From assembly GCA_965246945.1 (NCBI GenBank), contig CBDFFW010000001.1:1645639-1709638 (forward strand): 64,000 nt of DNA, read 5' to 3'. The DNA is from Alphaproteobacteria bacterium (GTDB taxonomy: Bacteria > Pseudomonadota > Alphaproteobacteria > UBA11073). The notes below the pieces were generated by a model, which was not told the DNA's origin, searched no databases, and saw nothing but the letters and a program-made list of their open reading frames with translations. Shown here in pieces: positions 4,993 through 49,863 of the stretch (the stretch's first letter is position 1; each line of letters begins with the position of its first letter). The position numbers were made by a program, and so were the translations under genes.

Positions 4993-5550
4993 TTGCCACA
5001 TTCAAAGCAAATGAATACTGAAACCATGCATTCCACCACGGTGATCGCCGTGAAAAAAGACGGGCAGACGGTGATTGCGGCCGATGGGCAGGTATCGCTG
5101 GGCCCGACCATCATCAAAGATAATGCGCGCAAGGTGCGCCGCCTGGCTGGTGATAAAGTGATTGCCGGTTTTGCCGGAGCAACCGCCGATGCATTTACGC
5201 TATTTGAACGCTTGGAAAAAAAGCTGGAGCAATATCCCACCCAGCTGCTGCGTGCCTGTGTGGAGCTGGCCAAAGACTGGCGGACCGACCGTTATTTGCG
5301 CAAACTGGAAGCATTATTACTGGTCGCCGATAAAGAAACGCTGCTGATGATCACCGGCAATGGCGATGTGATTGAACCCAGCGATGGGTTGATGGCCATC
5401 GGCAGTGGCGGCAACTACGCGCTATCCGCTGGCCGCGCATTATATGATCTGGAAGGCCACACCGCCGAAGCCATCGCCCGCCGCGCCCTCAAAATCGCAG
5501 GTGAGATTTGCGTATATACCAACCATAATGTGACGCTGGAGGAAATTTGA
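4993..5550 (+). CDS. hslV: ATP-dependent protease subunit HslV; alternative starts at 5011 or 5026, with the N-terminal propeptide typical of alphaproteobacteria
   Basis: The [23 protein letters not shown] motif places the catalytic Thr after a short leader. Ntn-hydrolase family. Confidence 0.9.
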
Positions 5551-5594
5551 TTCTTAGCACGCAGAATTTGTAATCGGAAACAAAGGTTAATACA

Positions 5595-6920
5595 TTGCAT
5601 CTAATGCAATCCTTAACGCCCAAACACATCGTCGCGGAATTAGACCGGTTTATTGTCGGGCAAAATGCGGCCAAAAAAGCGGTGGCGCTAGCGCTGCGTA
5701 ATCGCTGGCGGCGGATGAGCCTGCCGGAAGATCTGCGCGCGGAGGTAACGCCGAAAAATATTTTGATGATTGGACCGACAGGTGTAGGGAAAACGGAAAT
5801 TGCGCGCCGTTTGGCCAAACTGGCCGATGCACCGTTTATTAAAGTGGAAGCGACAAAATTTACCGAAGTGGGTTATGTGGGCCGCGATGTGGATAGCATT
5901 ATCCGCGATTTGCTCGATAACGCGATTATTCAAAAGCGTGCACAACAACGCCGCAGTGTCGAAGAACAGGCCAAGGAAGCAACCCTTAACCGCATTATTG
6001 AGGCACTGGTTGGCGCGCAGGCCAGCCCAGCCACGCGGGACAGCTTTCGCAAAAAACTGGATGCCGGCGAATTGGAAGATACCGAAATTGAAGTAGAAGT
6101 GAATGATAATGGCAGTTCGGCCCTGCCCACTTTTGATATTCCTGGGATGCCAGGCGCGCAAATGGGCATGCTAAATATCGGTGATATGCTGGGCAAGGCG
6201 CTCGGCACCCGCACGCGCCGCCGCAAGCTAACCGTAGCGCAAGCGCGTGAAGTATTGGCGACCGAAGAAGCCGATAAATTGTTGGATGAAGAAAAACTAA
6301 TTAGCGAAGCCAAAACCCTGGTTGAACAAAACGGCATTGTGTTTTTGGATGAGGTCGACAAAATTGCCGCGCGCAGCGAAGGCCGCAGTGGCGGCGGTGA
6401 TGTCTCCCGCGAAGGCGTACAGCGCGATTTACTGCCGCTGATTGAAGGCACGACCGTGAGCACCAAGCACGGCCCGGTGCAAACTGATCATATTTTATTC
6501 ATCGCTTCCGGCGCATTTCATGTGTCTAAACCATCCGACTTATTGCCGGAATTGCAAGGCCGCCTGCCAATCCGTGTGGAATTAGAAGCCTTGAAGGTGG
6601 ACGATTTTAAACGCATTTTGATTGAGCCTGAACATAGCCTGCTGAAGCAATATATCGCGTTGTTAGATGTAGAGGGCGTGACGTTGACGGTGGAACCGGC
6701 CGCCGTGGACGCGCTGGCGCAACTGGCATTTGATATCAATAACAGCGTCGAAAATATTGGGGCGCGGCGTTTGCATACGGTGCTGGAAAAATTGCTGGAA
6801 GATATCAGCTTTAATGCCAGCGAACGCGGCGGCGAAGCGATTACGATTGATGAGCCATATGTGCAAGAACGCCTGGCCGAACTGGCGAAAAACACCGATT
6901 TAAGCCGGTATGTTTTGTGA
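5595..6920 (+). CDS. hslU: ATP-dependent protease ATPase subunit HslU; the start may be ATG 5604
   Basis: AAA+ Walker [16 protein letters not shown], Walker [11 protein letters not shown], sensor and I-domain. Adjacent to hslV. Confidence 0.95.
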
Positions 6921-7505: not shown

Positions 7506-8265
7506 ACACATAACCCAGGCAGTGGTGCTGGCCGCCGGTAAAGGCGAACGCATGCGCCCGCTGACCGATCACACGCCCAAGCCGTTGTTGCCAGTGCTTG
7601 GTATTACACCGCTGGCCCGCTGCATCAATGCCTTGGTGCAGGCAGACATCACCACTATTATTGTAAATTATCATCATCTCGGCGCCCAAATAAGCAACGC
7701 CGTTGGGATGCTGGCCAAAGATTACCCGAATGTTACATTTCATCTGCAGGATGAAACAGCACAATTATTAGATACCGGTGGCACCATGCGGCGTGCGCTG
7801 CCGTTACTGGGCCAAGCACCTTTTTTCACGGTAAATGCAGCCGATTTTTGGGAAGATGGCGATAGTCCGGCCCTGCAGCGGATGCAAAATACCTGGGACG
7901 CTGAAAAAATGGATGCGTTGCTCCTGTTGCATGCCGCCGCCAATATTCGCGGCGATATGCAAAATGGTAATTTTGTATTTGATCCATTATCGTTATCCGA
8001 TCATGCAACACGGGCTGACGATGATAATTCAATCAGCGGACCCATCCAATTCAAATTGGCCAGCGTGCAACAGGCCTATATGTTCGGCAGCGTCACGCTT
8101 ATCAAACCGGAATTATTTGCGGCCTATCCGCTTAATCACATTTTCTCCCAGCGCCTGATATGGGAAGAATTAGCGGCACGGCAGCGCTTATATGGCCTGT
8201 TACACGATAATTTGTGGTATCATTTAACCAGCCCCGCCGATTATACCGCGCTTAATCCGGCTTGA
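7498..8265 (+). CDS. Sugar-phosphate nucleotidyltransferase, MurU-like NTP-transferase family
   Basis: N-terminal VVLAAGKGERMRPLTDHTPKPLLPV motif (GxGxR nucleotidyltransferase fold). ATG 7498 overlaps the tsaE stop (ATGGCTGA). In many alphaproteobacteria a tsaE-nucleotidyltransferase block includes MurU. Confidence 0.65.
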   Translation: MAEHITQAVVLAAGKGERMRPLTDHTPKPLLPVLGITPLARCINALVQADITTIIVNYHHLGAQISNAVGMLAKDYPNVTFHLQDETAQLLDTGGTMRRALPLLGQAPFFTVNAADFWEDGDSPALQRMQNTWDAEKMDALLLLHAAANIRGDMQNGNFVFDPLSLSDHATRADDDNSISGPIQFKLASVQQAYMFGSVTLIKPELFAAYPLNHIFSQRLIWEELAARQRLYGLLHDNLWYHLTSPADYTALNPA

Positions 8266-8290
8266 CTTTTCGTACGCAATATCGTACGCT
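8262..8290 (+). promoter_or_regulatory. Putative yefM-yoeB promoter with overlapping operator repeats; predicted near-leaderless transcript
   Basis: TTGACT, then a 17-nt spacer, then TACGCT. This ends 7 nt before ATG 8298. The spacer and -10 contain two CGTACG cores spaced 12 bp centre to centre. Confidence 0.45.
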
Positions 8291-8297
8291 ATGTCTT

Positions 8298-8543
8298 ATG
8301 AACGTTATCACCGTTAGCAATGCTCGTGCCAATTTATACCGCTTGGTGGATGAGGTCAGCGAAAATTCTGAACCCACAATGCTAGTTGGCAAGCGGCATA
8401 ATGCCGTGCTGATTTCCGAAGAGGAATGGCGCGGTATTCAAGAGACCTTATATTTATCTTCTATTCCCGGCATGGTGGAATCGATTAAGGCGGCAGCGGC
8501 TGAGCCTTTAAGTGAAGGTTCTAAAACATTGGAGTGGGAATAA
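8298..8543 (+). CDS. yefM: Type II antitoxin YefM (Phd/YefM family)
   Basis: MNVITVSNARANLYRLVDEV...LISEEEWRGIQETLYLSSIPGM aligns along its length with E. coli YefM. Overlaps the toxin gene by TAATG. Confidence 0.85.
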   Translation: MNVITVSNARANLYRLVDEVSENSEPTMLVGKRHNAVLISEEEWRGIQETLYLSSIPGMVESIKAAAAEPLSEGSKTLEWE

Positions 8544-8800
8544 TGATTTGGGAAATCATCTATTCGAAACAAGCCCAAAAAGATGCAAAAAAAATTGGCC
8601 GTTCAAATCTAAAAAGTAAAGTTCAAGAAATTTTAGATGTATTGAAGAATGATCCGTTACAACCACCTTATGAAAAATTGATTGGCGATTTAGAAGATTA
8701 TTATTCCCGCCGTATCAATCGCCAACACCGTTTGGTTTATGAAGTTATTCGAAGTGAGAAAACGGTCCACATCCTTAAAATGTGGACGCATTACGAATAA
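8543..8800 (+). CDS. yoeB: Type II toxin YoeB (mRNA interferase, RelE/ParE superfamily)
   Basis: MIWEIIYSKQAQKD...YYSRRINRQHRLVYEV...HILKMWTHYE is the YoeB signature. C-terminal catalytic His and Tyr are present. Confidence 0.85.
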   Translation: MIWEIIYSKQAQKDAKKIGRSNLKSKVQEILDVLKNDPLQPPYEKLIGDLEDYYSRRINRQHRLVYEVIRSEKTVHILKMWTHYE

Positions 8801-28851: not shown

Positions 28852-28959
28852 ACCTCATCCTGAGGAGCATCGTAGATGCGTCTCGAAAGATGCTCCAGCG
28901 GAATCTCCTTTAAGTATCCTTCGAGACACCCTGTATTACCGCTCATCAAAATGAGGTAA
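28852..28959. repeat. MITE-like palindromic repeat, family A, copy 1 (right end degenerate)
   Basis: Reads ACCTCATCCTGAGGAG...GCGTCTCGAAAGATGCTCCA...GTATCCTTCGAGAC...ATGAGGT. It shares the 16-bp terminal inverted repeat and inner inverted repeat with copies at 49455 and 49903. It fills the ligA-kinase spacer. Confidence 0.7.
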
Positions 28960-43591: not shown

Positions 43592-44884
43592 ATGACCAAT
43601 GTTGTTGTTGTTGGGGCCCAATGGGGCGATGAGGGGAAAGGCAAGATTGTCGATTGGCTATCGGCGCGCGCCGATGTCGTTGTCCGCTTTCAGGGCGGGC
43701 ATAATGCTGGCCACACGCTGGTGGTGGATGGCAAGGTATATAAATTACATCTGCTGCCATCCGGCATCGTGCGCGGCGGCAAAATGTCTTATATCGGGAA
43801 TGGCGTGGTGCTCGACCCGTGGGCCTTGCTGCAGGAAATCGACAATGTGCGTACGCAAGGTTTGGATGTTAATCCCAGTAATTTGCGTATCGCTGAAAAC
43901 ACGCCGTTGATTTTACCGGTGCACGCCGCTGTGGATAAAGCCCGCGAAGCCGCGCGCAAGGGCGGCGGGATTGGCACGACCGGCCGCGGGATTGGCCCCG
44001 CCTATGAAGACAAGGTTGCCCGCCGCGCGATTCGGCTATGCGATTTAAACACGCCGGATTTATTGGCCGAAAAGGTGCAGGATTTATTGGTAGTGCATAA
44101 TGCCACTTTGCGCGGGTTTGGCGAAGCGGAATTGGATGCGGCGCAAATGACTGCCAATTTATTGGCCCTCGCCCCGCGCATTCTGCCGTTCCAAGCGCGC
44201 GTGTGGGAATTACTGCAAACCGCCATTAACGCCAAACAAACGATTTTGTTTGAAGGCGCACAGGGCGCGTTGCTGGATGTGGACCATGGCACCTATCCAT
44301 TTGTCACTGCTTCCAATACTGTAGCAGCCTCGGCTTCGATTGGCGCCGGTATTGGGCCGCAGCATTTGGGTTATATTTTGGGCTTGGTCAAAGCTTACAC
44401 CACACGGGTCGGCGCTGGCCCTTTCCCTACCGAACTTAAAGACGAGATCGGCGAACATATCGGCCAACGCGGGCATGAATTCGGCACTACTACCGGCCGC
44501 AAACGCCGCTGCGGCTGGTTCGATGCGGTGCTGGTAAAACAAAGTATTCAGCTGAATGGCATCAACGGTATCGCCTTCACCAAACTGGATGTACTGGATG
44601 AATTGCCGGAGCTAAAAATTTGTGTTGCCTATGAATTAAACGGCCAACGGATCGATTACTTGCCCGCCAATGCAGCCGAACAAGCCGCTGTGAAACCAAT
44701 TTACGAAACTATGCCGGGCTGGCAAACTATTACAGCCGGAATGCGGCAATGGGACCAACTGCCAGAAAATGCGCTTAAATACATTGCGCGGATTGAAGAA
44801 CTGATCGGCGCGCCAGTCGCCCTGCATTCCACCAGCCCCGAACGCGAAGACACAATTTTGCGCATCGATCCATTCACGGCTTAA
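43592..44884 (+). CDS. purA: Adenylosuccinate synthetase
   Basis: P-loop [31 protein letters not shown] motifs. Confidence 0.95.
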
Positions 44885-44902
44885 TAAAAATGCGGGTTTT
44901 GT

Positions 44903-45535
44903 TTACACGGCATGCGATCGCTGGGTTGAAGACATAGCTGAATTGAAAGTCACTTTCAGTTTCAGCCGCAACCGGTCTAAGCCATTCGTGCCAAGTTTGG
45001 GGTTATAACGTTTGGTTGGCATTTCAAATGCTTTACTCAAACCGCCAGCAAGTCCGGCTAACAATGATGGCGTTCTGAGAGCAGCTATTCTCGGCAATAA
45101 AGTTTGCTGGCTAGATAGTGATTTTACGCCGTTAGTTTTTACCGGTTGCCCATCGTGCTTGGGAGCAAGTTGATTAATTTGAATGAAAACCGGCTTTGGC
45201 GATTGCCGCATATTTTGCACCACGCGCTGCAACCAAACCCCTAATTCACCAGCCATTTGATTGGCGGTTAGTTCCAACATCAACGGCTGATCGGGTTTCT
45301 GCTGCTGCCAAGTTTGAATCAGCGCGGCTAAATTCTGTTCAAGCCTGCTCAGCCAAATGGCCTCATTGGTTGAAACTGCATTTGGATCGTTATCTAAAAG
45401 ATTATCTGTGGCTTTTATTTGGGTTCGGTAGTGAGAGATATAGGGCAGACCTTGCGCCGTGTAGGCAATAACAGGTTCGCATTCCAGCAACTGATTGCCA
45501 GTATCAGGGATAAGATCGTCTTCTCTTATATCCAT
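44903..45535 (-). CDS. Hypothetical protein, divergent from the pseudokinase gene
   Basis: Uninterrupted 210-aa frame. No signal peptide or motif recognised. Confidence 0.4.
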   Translation of the reverse strand: MDIREDDLIPDTGNQLLECEPVIAYTAQGLPYISHYRTQIKATDNLLDNDPNAVSTNEAIWLSRLEQNLAALIQTWQQQKPDQPLMLELTANQMAGELGVWLQRVVQNMRQSPKPVFIQINQLAPKHDGQPVKTNGVKSLSSQQTLLPRIAALRTPSLLAGLAGGLSKAFEMPTKRYNPKLGTNGLDRLRLKLKVTFNSAMSSTQRSHAV

Positions 45536-45637
45536 GTAACCTTAAACAAATTGTAACATAAAACCGTAAACGATTCACTAAGAATTTTTCTAAAGCTAAC
45601 GGTTCTTTCTTCCGCCCTATTTTTCCGCCATGCTGGC

Positions 45638-47638
45638 GTGATGAGCGACTCGGGCGCCCGTCCACGTGTGCGGCGTTTTCATATTGAGCTGGATAACCCG
45701 CTGCCTGCGTTTAATCAGGGCGGGGCGCAGGCTTATGCGGTCACCAATAACACCGAATACCGCGATACGATTTATGCCTTGTTGTGCCCCAGTAATATGC
45801 CATTGCGTTTGGAAATGGGCATATCCCTGCAAAATACCACCACTCACCATTTTCATAATTTAATCGATTTCGAAATCGTCCATGGCAGTGGTTTGACGGA
45901 AGAATATATGGGGTTGATCCTGCCCAAACCATTGGGCCGGCCGCTAGTGGCCGATCTCAATACCCATTTCATCCCCTGGAAGGAAGAGGAACTGCGGCAA
46001 TATCTGATTAAGCCGATGGTGGAAGTGCTAAATACCTTGCATGACCGTGTTTTATCGCATGGCAGTATTTCGCCGCTGCAAATGTGGCGGGAAGGTGCGG
46101 CACAACCGGTTAAACTAGCGCAATGCTTCACCACGCTGCCTGGGTTAAATCAGCCGGTATTTTTTGAAACCATCGAACGCGCCATTGCCCAACCCTTTGC
46201 CAAAGGGGACGGGCGTACAGAAGACGATTTGTTCAGCTTGGGTGCCACCATTTATTTTTTAGCCGTGGGCCGTAACCCCCTGGCGCATCTATCGCCTGAA
46301 GAATTAATCAGAGCGCGCATGGAAATCAGCACGCCGGTTTTGTTGTTAAACACCGCGCGCGTGCCCAGCAGTTTATCTGAACTGGTAAAGGGTTTGTTAT
46401 CGGATCAACAGCGTTCACGCCTGACGATCCGCGATGTGATGGATTGGTGCGATGGTCAGCGCCTGGTGCCCAAACAACCGGTTTCCGTTGGGAAAGCCAA
46501 ACGCAGTATCATTTTTAACGGGCAGGAATTTCTAAAACCAACATTATTGGCGCAAGCGCTGGCCAGCGCGCCGGAAGAAGCCATTAAATTTGTTTTGGGC
46601 CCTGATTTTCTACGCTGGTGCCAACGCAGCGGCGCCATTGATGTTGCGCTATATCAAAAATTGGCAGAGGTGTTGGGCAGTTCCGAAAATGGTAAATCTC
46701 CGGCGGTGACCTTAACCCAGGTGATTGCCTGTTTAGATCCCGCCGGCCCTTTGCGTTATAAAGAATTTAGTTTTGGCCTGGCTGGTATTGGCACCGCTGC
46801 CATGCTCGCATTTTTACAAAACAACGCAAATTTAAAAAACGCCGTGGCAGAAATTGTGCAGAGCGATTTGCCCAGTTTTTGGGCCGGCCTGCCCGGCAAC
46901 AGTTTTGCGTTTAACACCACCATTGCCCAGGAATTATCGGCGCTGCGCCATTTAATTACGCAAACCCAGCCAGGTTATGGGTTGGAGCGCATGCTGTATA
47001 CGCTGAATCGGCAATTGCCTTGCCAATCCGAAACCTGCCATGGTTTTTATGCCCTGCAATCGCGTGATTTATTACGGGCCTTGGATGGTTACATTCAAAA
47101 AGGCCAGCGCCCACAGGAATTGCTGGACCGGCATAGCGCCGCATTTTTAGGCAGCCGCCATAACAGCCGGTCGGATGAAAATTTGCTGAAATTGCTTAAT
47201 CCCAGCCAGGAATTGGGTGAGCGGCGCATTGGCCTGTTGAAGTTACTGGCGACCCTGCAAGCGCGGTTTAAACTGGGGCCGTTAACCCATTTAACCGGCT
47301 GGCTGGCCGAATTGGTGCGGCCGTCTTTGGATAATTTACACAGCCAAACCATTAAAGAAGACATCGCCAAGTCTTTGCTGCGGGTCGCCAAACATGGTGA
47401 TTTGAACGAATTGCTGGCCTTGCTGGATAGCGGCAGTTTGCAATTGCGCGATCAGCGTTTATTTAAAAGCGCACGCCAAGAATATCAAAATTTGCAAAAG
47501 CAAATTAACGAGATCGATCAATGGGTCGCGCAAAAAGATGCGCTGGGCCATGCCGTCGGCCGGCAAGTGGCCAGTGTTACCGCTGTGGTTCTGGCGCTGT
47601 TAGCCACAGTGGTTATCATGCTGGCACAGAAATTTTAA
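45638..47638 (+). CDS. Tail-anchored membrane protein with an N-terminal degenerate protein-kinase-like (pseudokinase) domain
   Basis: Residues ~20-270 follow the Hanks kinase subdomain order with catalytic residues replaced. Beta3 RDTIYALL lacks the Lys. The catalytic loop is HGSISPLQM in place of HRDxKPxN. The Mg site is QCF in place of DFG. An activation and P+1 segment FFETIERA is followed by DDLFSLGATIYFLAVGRNPL, the subdomain IX signature. The C-terminal helical region ends in a TM helix VASVTAVVLALLATVVIMLAQKF. Confidence 0.6.
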   Translation: MMSDSGARPRVRRFHIELDNPLPAFNQGGAQAYAVTNNTEYRDTIYALLCPSNMPLRLEMGISLQNTTTHHFHNLIDFEIVHGSGLTEEYMGLILPKPLGRPLVADLNTHFIPWKEEELRQYLIKPMVEVLNTLHDRVLSHGSISPLQMWREGAAQPVKLAQCFTTLPGLNQPVFFETIERAIAQPFAKGDGRTEDDLFSLGATIYFLAVGRNPLAHLSPEELIRARMEISTPVLLLNTARVPSSLSELVKGLLSDQQRSRLTIRDVMDWCDGQRLVPKQPVSVGKAKRSIIFNGQEFLKPTLLAQALASAPEEAIKFVLGPDFLRWCQRSGAIDVALYQKLAEVLGSSENGKSPAVTLTQVIACLDPAGPLRYKEFSFGLAGIGTAAMLAFLQNNANLKNAVAEIVQSDLPSFWAGLPGNSFAFNTTIAQELSALRHLITQTQPGYGLERMLYTLNRQLPCQSETCHGFYALQSRDLLRALDGYIQKGQRPQELLDRHSAAFLGSRHNSRSDENLLKLLNPSQELGERRIGLLKLLATLQARFKLGPLTHLTGWLAELVRPSLDNLHSQTIKEDIAKSLLRVAKHGDLNELLALLDSGSLQLRDQRLFKSARQEYQNLQKQINEIDQWVAQKDALGHAVGRQVASVTAVVLALLATVVIMLAQKF

Positions 47639-47648
47639 GGGACAAATC

Positions 47649-48122
47649 ATGGCCAAAGAAAAAGCCGCAAAACCGGTTAAAGCCGGTGCCGAAAATAAAA
47701 CCGGTATGGCCTGGCTCTTGGTCTGGCCGATTATTTTGGCGATGAGTGCGGTTTTCCCGCCGCTATTTATTTTCGTGGCCGGGGTGATCCCCACTTTGGT
47801 CGCGCGGTTTGTCGATCCCCATCCCGAACGCTCGCTCACCGTTTGTGCCGGCGCAGGCAACGCGGTCGGCTGCGTTTACTGGCTGATCTGGACAGTCACC
47901 CATCAATATTTAAGCTGGCAAAGCATTTTGGGATTAATGTTATTGCCAACCACCTGGTTAGTTTTGCTCGGCGCAACTGGCGCGGGCTGGGTGGTGTGGC
48001 TAATAATACCGTCCATGGTATCCGCCCAGGTAACTCAGCATCAACTGGCCATACGCGCACGGCTGGTCAAAGCCCAAGAGAAAATGAGCAAAGAATGGAA
48101 TCAAGGCATCAATGCGCCTTAA
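47649..48122 (+). CDS. Small polytopic membrane protein (about four TM helices), translationally coupled to the pseudokinase gene
   Basis: Begins 10 nt after the upstream stop. Hydrophobic segments AWLLVWPIILAMSAVFPPLFIFVAGVIPTLVA, VGCVYWLIWTV, ILGLMLLPTTWLVLLGATGAGWVVWLII. Confidence 0.5.
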   Translation: MAKEKAAKPVKAGAENKTGMAWLLVWPIILAMSAVFPPLFIFVAGVIPTLVARFVDPHPERSLTVCAGAGNAVGCVYWLIWTVTHQYLSWQSILGLMLLPTTWLVLLGATGAGWVVWLIIPSMVSAQVTQHQLAIRARLVKAQEKMSKEWNQGINAP

Positions 48123-48170
48123 TAAAGTCGTTTTTCATCTTTAAACAACATTTTTTAGCCTTAATTAAGT

Positions 48171-48198
48171 TGACAATATGGTATTAATTTTTATTATC
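48171..48198 (+). promoter_or_regulatory. Putative sigma70 promoter for the Tat-lipoprotein gene
   Basis: TTGACA, a 16-nt spacer, TATTAT. It lies ~30 nt upstream of RBS AAGGAG and the ATG at ~48229. Confidence 0.4.
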
Positions 48199-48228
48199 TA
48201 TATTAGACAACCATTAAGGAGAAACAAA

Positions 48229-49170
48229 ATGACTAGCGAAAAAATTAATTTAACAAGAAGAAAAGTCTTAGTATTATCAGGCGTCGGCCTTGTATCACTG
48301 CTAACTGGTTGTGGTGGTAGCACAAAAACAGTTAACAATTATCCTCCTGCAACAACAATATCTCCAAATTCAAATAGCAATGCCAATTCGAACCAAGCCC
48401 CCTCTATAGCTTCCATCGATAAAACCAATACCCGTTTGCAAAGCTTAATGGGCCAAAGTTCAACCGACTCCGTTGCGGTGCAAATGCAAGCGCGTGATAC
48501 TGTGATTGCTTATCAAAATGACATTGATGCTGTAATCCGGCCTGCTTTTACCGGCAATGATCCAAATCATAATTTAAGTGCATTGAAAGCGCTCACTACC
48601 ACAAACAAAACATCAATTATTATTACTGTGGAAATAGATCCAACTGATCCATCGGTGACCTTTGACGGTCAGCAAACTGTGCATTTTGCCGCCAGTGCTG
48701 TTCATTATAATATTTCGGCAGATAATGAATTCGCTTCAGGCGCCAAAGATGCCGAAGACTTTACTGACCATGGTTTAGTTGTTCGCATTAATAAGGGATT
48801 CCCAGGCGTAAATTATTATTATGATGATATTTACCAAGATAACCGCACTGGCGATCCGACCGATCGTGTTGAACGGCATACTGCCAATCTTCTTGTGGCA
48901 ACCCCTAATTACATTGAGCAAGGTGCACGCTTTAATAAATATTCGGCGAGCGAACAAAGACAAGCTTTGACTGGGGTAATAAAAATTTTGGAGGCTGTGC
49001 AAAATGGCAAAATCAAGTTGAATGCAGATAACACAGTCACCATGAATGGCCAAACCAGCAGAACACTGACACTTAGCGCCAAAGACGTGGGTGTCGAAAT
49101 CGGCTTTGGCAAAATCAGTGGTACTATTTCTAAAACAATGTCAGCATTGCCGTTATCATTTAACGGGTAA
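48229..49170 (+). CDS. Lipoprotein with a twin-arginine-like signal, Asn/Ser/Thr-rich
   Basis: MTSEKINLTRRKVLVLSGVGLVSLLTGCGGS gives a TRRKVL Tat-like motif plus lipobox LTGC. Low-complexity NSNSNANSN linker, then a globular domain. AT-rich. Confidence 0.55.
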   Translation: MTSEKINLTRRKVLVLSGVGLVSLLTGCGGSTKTVNNYPPATTISPNSNSNANSNQAPSIASIDKTNTRLQSLMGQSSTDSVAVQMQARDTVIAYQNDIDAVIRPAFTGNDPNHNLSALKALTTTNKTSIIITVEIDPTDPSVTFDGQQTVHFAASAVHYNISADNEFASGAKDAEDFTDHGLVVRINKGFPGVNYYYDDIYQDNRTGDPTDRVERHTANLLVATPNYIEQGARFNKYSASEQRQALTGVIKILEAVQNGKIKLNADNTVTMNGQTSRTLTLSAKDVGVEIGFGKISGTISKTMSALPLSFNG

Positions 49171-49563: not shown

Positions 49564-49863
49564 CTATAAGTGTTTCTTTTTATATCTTTCAGCCAGCATT
49601 GGCAGCAATTCATATTCTTTGCGGATCAATGCTTCTTTCTTATCGCGTCGCCAACCTTTAACTTGGCGCTCTGCTGCAATGGCATCCGTTATATTCAGAA
49701 AATTTTCAGCGAATACCAGGCGAACTGGGCGCCGCTTGAATGTATAACACGTTGGATGAAAACCCTGTTCATGCTGGCTCATCCGCAATTCAAATTCGCC
49801 GCGCGTCGTACCTACATAATAACTGTTATCCGCACAATGCAAAATATAGAGCCATGCGGACAT
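49564..49863 (-). CDS. GIY-YIG nuclease family protein (small YhbQ/UPF0213 type), intact
   Basis: MSAWLYILHCADNSYYVGTTRGEFELRMSQHEQG contains the GIY...YVG motifs and an Arg. The C-terminal ...KGWRRDKKEALI is typical of this family. 99 aa. Confidence 0.8.
   Translation of the reverse strand: MSAWLYILHCADNSYYVGTTRGEFELRMSQHEQGFHPTCYTFKRRPVRLVFAENFLNITDAIAAERQVKGWRRDKKEALIRKEYELLPMLAERYKKKHL

Follow-up and report, generated by a model that had tools for sequence, protein, structure and literature searches.

A conserved gene pair encoding a tail-anchored pseudokinase and a small membrane protein in Alphaproteobacteria

To our knowledge, bacterial pseudokinases are only now entering catalogues, and a role is known for very few of them; "scaffold" is the default reading for any pseudokinase. 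The GLW pseudokinases are a proteobacterial family defined in an atlas of bacterial serine/threonine kinases (PMC12599244; bioRxiv 10.1101/2025.01.12.632604), characterised by Gly-Leu-Trp in place of the HRD motif and by LLLL/W at strand beta3 (PMC12599244). In Firmicute type VII secretion, the membrane pseudokinase EssB/YukC (PDB 6Z0F; reviewed in PMC12599244) serves as a non-catalytic assembly scaffold that binds a polytopic membrane partner. The Mycobacterium pseudokinase linked to MviN (MurJ), ActPs3 (PDB 3UQC; PMC12599244), is fused to a 14-helix flippase, has no activation loop, and acts at the cytoplasmic face through contacts with other proteins. By contrast, YabT of Bacillus subtilis (PMC6333020) retains intact motifs and kinase activity; its Hanks-type kinase domain is joined through a short basic juxtamembrane region to a C-terminal transmembrane anchor, without an extracellular sensor.

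The locus studied here lies within a 64,000-nucleotide stretch of an alphaproteobacterial genome (the window), with purA upstream and sucC downstream. It had been predicted to encode a four-gene membrane module, in which a cytoplasmic pseudokinase scaffold, a small membrane partner and a periplasmic Tat lipoprotein would form an envelope-associated system alongside a divergently oriented 210-aa gene. The sequence features on which this was based (the divergent 210-aa gene, the lipoprotein's NSN linker and lipobox, the promoter match, the MITE/GIY-YIG unit, purA and sucC) were all found again, and neither the open reading frame list nor the family searches assigned a function to any of the four genes. 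The features of the region are:

44903 to 45535, minus strand: 210-aa gene (orf210), lineage-specific, occupying a slot of variable content that separates purA from the pseudokinase gene; outside the conserved module
45641 to 47638, plus strand: tail-anchored pseudokinase gene, 665 aa from the ATG at 45641, the start and length of database protein P0001
45665 to 46483, plus strand: pseudokinase domain, aa ~10-282, folded like a eukaryotic-type protein kinase but lacking all three catalytic residues
46484 to 47431, plus strand: C-terminal helical globular domain, aa 283-598, without known relative
47432 to 47623, plus strand: long C-terminal helix, comprising a stalk (aa 599-643) and transmembrane tail anchor (aa 644-662), with 4 residues beyond
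47639 to 47648, plus strand: 10-nt intergenic junction, with an AAGGG Shine-Dalgarno-like motif overlapping the pseudokinase stop codon
47649 to 48122, plus strand: small polytopic membrane partner gene, 157 aa, with its start ATG at 47649
48229 to 49170, plus strand: orphan gene for a predicted Tat-signal lipoprotein, 313 aa, database protein P0028; outside the conserved module
49564 to 49863, minus strand: GIY-YIG gene (Pfam E 2.8e-12)

Residue numbers count from position 45638, the GTG at which the mechanically called pseudokinase reading frame begins (45638-47638, plus strand, 666 aa).

The pseudokinase belongs to a family of at least 1,302 clusters at 50% identity (E<1e-30), confined mainly to Alphaproteobacteria, with named loci in Azospirillaceae, Kiloniellaceae, Pelagibius, Micavibrio, Terasakiella, Magnetovibrio, Aliidongia and Stellaceae. 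Neither Pfam nor NCBIfam has a family-specific model for it, and no description of the family, or of the gene pair, was found in the literature. An origin in a defence system or phage was rejected, PADLOC and PHROGs having returned generic kinase-lobe matches or nothing. The N-terminal domain has the bilobal fold of the Hanks-type protein-kinase superfamily: a profile search matched kinases in the PDB at E 9e-12, the HMMER alignment placed the family's HRA opposite the HRD of MAPKAPK3, and 21 of 23 relatives matched Pfam Pkinase at E<=0.01 (best 3e-8). The Pfam cut-off is missed by most members and by the window protein, in which only the C-lobe matches PF00069, at 19.8 bits against a gathering cut-off of 31.7.

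This fold has lost the residues on which catalysis canonically depends. The ATP-binding lysine of beta3 occurs in none of 171 members, being V, I, L, A or M in 169 of them, and the window protein reads YALLC. The catalytic aspartate of HRD is likewise never present, with A, G, S or N in its place (H-G-S in the window), and the metal-binding aspartate of DFG is absent from all 171, its position being mostly hydrophobic (V/I/M/L); the HMMER alignment identifies G161 as the DFG glycine. The catalytic-loop asparagine is kept by 95% of the family, and the residue after the DFG glycine is acidic in 95%, whereas the window protein has glutamine at both positions (Q148 and Q162) and, together with its clade, has replaced all of N148, R145, G161 and E/D162. 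Purifying selection continues to act on the gene (dN/dS ~0.10, relative to L005), and its codons are those of a native gene (score 0.45; core genes average 0.49). The window protein is 59% identical to that of the related locus L090 in the kinase domain and 62% in the C-terminal domain, hence the kinase domain is not evolving more freely within the window clade.

The C-terminal domain, of ~320 aa, was modelled with confidence, and no solved structural relative was found for it. The family invariants within it are GYGLER-x2-Y (446-454), PCxS (461-464) and DRH (497-499), every one of which the window protein retains, and they include an invariant polar set of E450, R451, Y454, C462, S464, D497 and H499. 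Beyond this domain, residues 599-665 were modelled as a single unbroken helix, with a Kyte-Doolittle peak of 2.73 at 644-662, and 168 of the 171 family members have a C-terminal hydrophobic anchor, followed in all but one by no more than ten residues. With a transmembrane helix at its C-terminus, the protein is not free in the cytoplasm, as "cytoplasmic pseudokinase" had implied.

The pseudokinase stop codon (TAA, 47636-47638) is separated from the 157-aa gene by the 10 nt originally described, a spacing compatible with translational coupling. The partner has a lysine-rich N-terminus, approximately four hydrophobic segments and, at its C-terminus, a basic helix that closes with a conserved EWG motif; its conserved residues are P48, D56, N71, G74, G113, W150 and G151. 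It matched no family in Pfam, NCBIfam, PADLOC or PHROG, a protein search identified two close homologues only, and Pfam scans of 52 partner homologues returned only scattered matches, each in one or two members. Its codon usage is native, and its dN/dS of ~0.15 indicates purifying selection.

Neighbourhood conservation, the check proposed alongside the original prediction, was assessed across 90 related loci (L001-L089 and L090), with an 11-sequence alignment used for the genome-collection scan. The middle two genes co-localise, whereas the flanking two never do so. A partner homologue lies directly 3' of the pseudokinase homologue in 77 of the 81 loci with room for one, and the partner is present in 56 of the 58 loci whose sequence extends far to either side. 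The commonest context is a serA-hisZ-purA-pair-rpoH-rluD block, the called neighbours being serA, hisZ, purA, an rpoH-like sigma factor and RluD. Clustering of neighbours found no third recurrent family beyond serA-hisZ-purA and rpoH-rluD, and nothing recurrent emerged when the spacers between purA and the pseudokinase gene were scanned for CtrA boxes and for sigma-32, EcfG and sigma-70 consensus promoters.

The flanking genes differ from this pair in both composition and distribution. The 210-aa gene has a codon score of 0.09 and GC3 of 0.45, compared with core values of 0.49 and 0.53, although its own frame is the best of the six; it has no family match and no homologue at any of the 90 loci. 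L090 and L005 carry another gene in this slot, and the two are homologous to each other (E 3e-12, 32% identical). That orf210 is a fast-diverged orthologue of this gene was rejected, as its comparison gave z = 0.9, against 32% identity between those two. The lipoprotein gene was reassigned from the mechanical reading frame (48178-49170, plus strand, 330 aa) to the ATG at 48229, which is preceded by AAGGAG; this puts 106 nt between the lipoprotein gene and the 157-aa gene. Its product begins with a Tat-like twin-arginine segment (TRRKVL), followed by an LTGC lipobox and an NSNSNANSN linker; the translation contains MTSEKINLTRRKVLVLSGVGLVSLLTGC, matching the Tat-lipoprotein pattern (S/T-R-R-x-F-L-K, hydrophobic region, lipobox Cys), and on this motif match the protein is predicted to be exported by the Tat system and lipidated. 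The promoter attributed to it is indeed present as TTGACA-N16-TATTAT at 48170-48197, an 11/12 match lying inside the mechanically called frame, but promoter-like sites are no commoner in the region than in shuffled sequence, hence this match counts for little by itself. The gene has 41.5% GC, against 51% in core genes, and atypical codon usage. The GIY-YIG gene is bracketed by MITE-like inverted repeats with the core CTCATCCTGAGGAG, present in five copies in the window where none is expected by chance.

Since the co-occurrence of pseudokinase and partner falls largely inside one syntenic block, common to most loci, part of their adjacency could reflect inheritance rather than function, and at four loci (L012, L018, L032 and L034) the pseudokinase lacks a partner. 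That two independent genes are held together by nothing more than slow rearrangement of the core genome is nevertheless unlikely: the pair remains intact in 10 loci that lack both the purA and rpoH/rluD contexts, and in 13 that lack one; its gaps (-4 to +17 nt in most cases) are of a size usual for coupled genes; L038 has a duplicated partner beside the pseudokinase; and insertions of unrelated DNA in the window clade flank the pair on either side, none having separated its members. The proposal that all four genes constitute one envelope-associated system draws on their being neighbours without assigned functions, and on the plausible Tat signal and lipobox of a protein encoded so soon after the partner. 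It is highly improbable, however, as proximity here does not extend to relatives. A search of 5.8 billion protein clusters with the lipoprotein found nothing but the lipoprotein itself, which, like the 210-aa gene, has no homologue at any of the 90 loci. These include the closest relatives: L005, whose pseudokinase is 79% identical, has unrelated DNA at both positions, and in L090, a 60% relative, sucC follows the small membrane gene after 50 nt, such that sucC or short unrelated DNA is found where the lipoprotein gene would lie. GC3 is atypical in both flanking genes (0.34 in the lipoprotein gene), and the lipoprotein gene has its own promoter-like site and adjoins the MITE/GIY-YIG insertion. 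The arrangement of cytoplasmic scaffold, membrane partner and periplasmic lipoprotein thus lacks comparative support, and a lipoprotein would find no domain of either conserved protein on the periplasmic side to bind. The DNA flanking the pair is variable, and the 210-aa gene and the lipoprotein gene entered it recently and in this lineage only. The real unit is instead probably a two-gene operon, in which a tail-anchored, non-catalytic pseudokinase and its small partner form a complex in the inner membrane.

The same comparisons bear on what the pseudokinase does. The kinase-fold domain might be an atypical enzyme, either a kinase whose catalytic residues have moved, as they have in WNK, or an enzyme of AMPylation or glutamylation resembling SelO or SidJ, with the partner as its substrate or regulator. 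Most members keep the catalytic-loop asparagine and the acidic residue by the DFG glycine, and to judge from these motifs nucleotide or metal binding, and even unusual catalysis, may be possible family-wide. We consider such an enzyme improbable, as the three canonical catalytic residues are missing from every one of the 171 sequences, no alternative conserved lysine was seen in the Gly-loop region, and the window clade has lost its remaining pocket residues while purifying selection and all the C-terminal invariants persist. The function under selection in this clade therefore needs no nucleotide or metal site. It is less doubtful, though still rather unlikely, that the C-terminal domain is the working part, as an enzyme or a metal- or ligand-binding module, with the pseudokinase as its regulatory appendage. 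Cys462, His499, Asp497, Glu450 and Arg451 are 95-100% conserved across the 171 sequences and are placed by the model in loops or at helix starts, and they are retained in the very clade that degrades the kinase pocket, but no relative in fold or sequence backs any particular chemistry. This possibility is a refinement of the preferred explanation, the two-gene complex, and does not displace it.

For the two-gene complex, we infer the following arrangement. The two genes would be co-transcribed and co-translated, yielding a tail-anchored inner-membrane protein with its bulk, including the catalytically dead kinase domain, on the cytoplasmic side, and a partner whose conserved basic tail and terminal EWG would face the same compartment. 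The stalk helix probably dimerises, and the proteins would assemble in the membrane through packing of the pseudokinase's anchor helix against the helices of the partner. The pseudokinase would then have no catalytic role, serving instead as a scaffold or switch on the cytoplasmic side of the membrane, with ligand or partner binding at the C-terminal domain rather than in the kinase pocket. More tentatively, the pair may represent two subunits of an undescribed inner-membrane complex, conserved in much of the Alphaproteobacteria, in free-living Rhodospirillales-type bacteria as well as in predatory Micavibrio and small-genome relatives. Its working part would be a new fold that contains an invariant Cys/His/Asp/Glu/Arg site, and the degenerate kinase domain would regulate it. 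If so, retention beside core genes and purifying selection would suggest a housekeeping role in membrane or cell-cycle physiology.

This large, selected family brings two leads: a dedicated and tightly coupled membrane partner, and a C-terminal domain without a solved relative that contains invariant polar residues. The cultured hosts, which include Pelagibius litoralis, P. marinus and Micavibrio aeruginosavorus, make genetic testing of the pair feasible. The locus also illustrates for annotation that neighbouring genes without functions need not constitute a system, two of the four here being recent orphan insertions.

Compared with the known systems, the family most resembles the GLW pseudokinases, as judged against their published description, in its tail anchor and its alphaproteobacterial loci. 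The motifs differ, in a comparison made in detail with GLW and not with the six other atlas families: Gly-Leu-Trp is absent, the equivalent site being H-[RG]-[AGSN] with the histidine 96% conserved, and in place of poly-Leu the beta3 consensus is L-F-A-L-V-C. The GLW papers describe neither a conserved helical domain of ~320 aa nor a dedicated downstream membrane partner, and the atlas was built from Pfam Pkinase homologues, such that this family, with most of its members below the cut-off, may not have been collected. With EssB the pair's pseudokinase shares a single-pass topology, a cytoplasmic N-terminal pseudokinase domain in which all catalytic motifs are degraded, and, in the arrangement proposed here, a polytopic membrane partner. 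Yet EssB comes from a different phylum, and has a central transmembrane helix followed by an extracellular domain, whereas the window helix occupies aa 644-662 of 666, with 0-10 residues beyond it in nearly all members; nor are there secretion genes, such as those for an FtsK-like ATPase or WXG100 proteins, among the called or recurrent neighbours, which are housekeeping genes instead. YabT is similar in combining a Hanks-type domain with a C-terminal anchor and no extracellular sensor, but the motifs of the pair's family mark it as inactive, and a large additional domain and a gene for a partner set it further apart. The MviN-linked pseudokinase is likewise coupled to a polytopic membrane protein, and its action through contacts at the cytoplasmic face would be a further likeness. 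There the two are fused, whereas the partner in the window is a separate 157-aa protein with no detected similarity to MurJ or any Pfam family, encoded directly downstream of the pseudokinase with which it is conserved.

All four ORFs of the original prediction, which had proposed an envelope-associated system of four genes, lie where they had been placed, with hisZ and purA upstream (purA ends at 44884):

44903-45535, minus strand: orf210, an ORF call of 210 aa
45638-47638, plus strand: pseudokinase gene, an ORF call of 666 aa
47649-48122, plus strand: partner gene, an ORF call of 157 aa
48178-49170, plus strand: lipoprotein ORF as mechanically called, 330 aa
49450-50010: two MITE-like palindromic elements of ~110 nt with terminal inverted repeats (core CTCATCCTGAGGAG), bracketing the GIY-YIG gene
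49564-49863, minus strand: GIY-YIG gene, 99 aa (Pfam E 2.8e-12), downstream of the four ORFs
from 50078: sucC, downstream of the four ORFs

The purA ORF as mechanically listed (451 aa, from 43529) runs over the end of hisZ; its start is ATG 43592 according to a database protein (P0027, 430 aa) and alignments to relatives. Several finer details of the prediction also hold. The stop codon of the 666-aa gene and the start of the 157-aa gene are separated by 10 nt, with AAGGG overlapping the stop codon; the TTGACA-N16-TATTAT sequence proposed as a promoter is found at 48170-48197; the Tat-like TRRKVL, LTGC lipobox and NSN-rich linker are present in the lipoprotein translation; and inverted repeats bracket the GIY-YIG gene in the suggested MITE/GIY-YIG unit. 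The TTGACA-N16-TATTAT site falls within the mechanically called lipoprotein ORF, and the true start is ATG 48229, preceded by AAGGAG, giving a 313-aa product identical to database protein P0028. The CTCATCCTGAGGAG core occurs five times within the window, against zero copies expected by chance, the fifth lying at 28854-28867. Part of a MITE-like element and the C-terminus of a GIY-YIG gene are also carried by L005, the locus with the 79%-identical pseudokinase.

Searching with the 666-aa protein as query gave 23 full-length relatives, with identities of 25-79%. In all five of those looked up, a gene of 155-208 aa lies directly 3' of the pseudokinase homologue, usually with hisZ-purA upstream, and an opposite-strand rpoH-like sigma factor and RluD downstream. 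Scanning one genome per species added 80 further loci, nearly all from Rhodospirillales-type Alphaproteobacteria, with sources including Azospirillaceae, Kiloniellaceae, Pelagibius, Micavibrio, Terasakiella, Magnetovibrio, Aliidongia, Stellaceae and Rhodovibrionaceae. Of loci L001-L089, 81 have at least 450 nt of sequence after the pseudokinase homologue; in 77 of these, tblastn with the window proteins and then a profile HMM made from the matches showed a partner homologue directly following it, and the gap is mostly -4 to +17 nt. Where both flanks are long (58 loci), the partner is present in 56; the purA and rpoH/rluD contexts are both missing from 10 of these 56, and one of the two from 13. 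No other recurrent neighbour emerged beyond housekeeping synteny when neighbouring ORFs of L001-L089 were clustered all against all. Neighbourhood conservation, the test named in the original prediction, extends to the pseudokinase and partner, and not to orf210 or the lipoprotein, for which tblastn found no homologues in these loci. The pair is a two-gene unit with coupling-type spacing, built around a dead kinase fold.

Some loci depart from this arrangement. In L012, L018, L032 and L034, natural instances of the pseudokinase lacking its partner, the pseudokinase is full-length with no partner gene downstream. The genes found there instead include, from translations read by eye, dnaN with a probable gpsA, and an ORF resembling acetyl-CoA synthetase. 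An Aliidongia sp. MAG (L038) has partner paralogues on both sides of the pseudokinase, at 5100-5858 and 8009-8548 (HMM E 1e-45 and 3e-48). Labels from outside the Alphaproteobacteria are attached to a 2-kb contig of an uncultured Mycobacteriaceae (L019) and to Bdellovibrionales MAGs (L012, L034, L088), and likely reflect binning contamination in the former case, or old Micavibrio-type labelling, rather than occurrence outside the class. In L005 (7369-9389), a frameshift divides the pseudokinase gene into calls of 227 aa and 462 aa; because the contig name states 3x coverage, a sequencing error is the probable cause, not pseudogene formation. Kiloniellaceae and Pelagibius loci (L006, L039, L046, L051, L052) share a conserved CCTTAACGAACTCTTTGCCTTATTGCGGTTAAC-like element of ~33 nt in the purA-pseudokinase spacer, ~60-130 nt before the start of the pseudokinase gene. 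The element does not amount to a full CtrA box, was seen in neither the window nor other clades, and could be a promoter or operator.

The Pfam Pkinase model matches the 666-aa protein weakly and in the C-lobe only (19.8 bits, cut-off 31.7), and the family profile matches PDB kinases over the whole domain (E 9e-12). In the 171-member family alignment, V/I/L/A/M stands in place of the beta3 Lys; the HRD site reads H (96%)-R/G-A/G/S/N, with Asp in none of the 171 and HMMER aligning HRA to HRD; and hydrophobic residues predominate where the DFG Asp would be, again with Asp in 0/171. Approximately 95% of members retain the catalytic-loop Asn148, Arg145 and the acidic residue right after the DFG Gly, all of which are replaced in the window protein and its clade (SHGSISPLQMW, KLAQCF). 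Judged from these residues, the protein is a pseudokinase, since the catalytic positions are replaced, as are the remaining pocket residues in the window clade, whose lineage would probably bind neither metal nor nucleotide. The protein also contains a conserved domain without a match, and residues 599-665 form a single helix, the final part of which (644-662) is a transmembrane anchor common to 168 of the 171 relatives. No more than 10 residues follow it in all but one of these 168; hence the pseudokinase is predicted to be membrane-anchored, with its bulk cytoplasmic and almost nothing periplasmic.

The partner is Lys-rich at the N-terminus, contains approximately four hydrophobic segments and has a basic helix at the C-terminus, with conservation at P48, A52, D56, N71, G74, G113 and a terminal E-W150-G151; neither it nor its homologues had a consistent family match in Pfam, NCBIfam, PADLOC or PHROG. 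Relative to L005, dN/dS is ~0.10 in the pseudokinase, ~0.15 in the partner and 0.04 in purA, which are rough values as dS is near saturation, and the pair is by this measure under purifying selection. When 1.84 billion representatives were searched exhaustively with the profile, the family came to at least 1,302 clusters at E<1e-30, the best 150 of which are all 614-782 aa and match nearly the whole profile.

Of the flanking genes, the lipoprotein had no match besides itself in a set of 5.8 billion protein clusters. In L005, DNA identity is 81-87% in the flanking housekeeping genes, and the pair aligns, but the sequence bordering the pair on each side fails to align. In L090, with a 60%-identical pseudokinase, purA is followed by a 198-aa gene on the minus strand, then by the pseudokinase, the partner and, 50 nt on, sucC, with neither lipoprotein nor GIY-YIG unit. 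A divergent gene of ~200 aa occupies the purA-pseudokinase slot in all three close relatives (window 44885-45640; L090 1343-1939, minus strand; L005 6878-7276, minus strand). Those of L090 and L005 are mutually homologous (32% identity, E 3e-12), and orf210 is unrelated to both, with no homology to the 198-aa gene (z = 0.9 against shuffles). The slot therefore holds unrelated genes, a pattern resembling the replacement of one gene by another in a fixed position. In codon usage, the pseudokinase scores 0.45, the partner 0.31, orf210 0.09 and the lipoprotein 0.17 (core mean 0.49), with GC3 of 0.56, 0.60, 0.45 and 0.34, respectively. Both flanking ORFs are probably real genes, as each scores best in its own frame; they are recent, lineage-specific orphan neighbours, outside any conserved system.

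We consider it reasonably probable that the pair forms a membrane assembly, in which pseudokinase and partner would come together in the inner membrane, the pseudokinase working as a scaffold or switch without catalysis, its C-terminal domain having the invariant polar cluster as the functional site, and its stalk helix dimerising. That the two genes are adjacent through inherited synteny only is unlikely, as the pair persists in loci without the purA and/or rpoH/rluD context, and aligns in L005 between stretches of DNA that differ; the L090 order likewise counts against it. It is a little harder still to credit the kinase fold with an unusual catalysis, given that selection still acts in the window clade although its remaining pocket residues are gone. 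The four-gene system is very improbable: its core, the co-localised pseudokinase and partner, stands, but the membership of orf210 and the lipoprotein does not.

Full-text literature searches found no paper on this pseudokinase family, and the conserved, apparently undescribed gene pair merits experiments. Of the kinds already described, membrane-anchored bacterial pseudokinases come nearest. The proteobacterial GLW family has a C-terminal transmembrane segment, and is defined by GLW replacing HRD and by LLLL/W at beta3 (PMC12599244; bioRxiv 10.1101/2025.01.12.632604), whereas both of these motifs are absent from the 171-member alignment. The central helix, extracellular domain and secretion-gene context of EssB/YukC were likewise not found in the window family; instead, the likeness to EssB/YukC would lie in a scaffold-type mode of working with a membrane partner.
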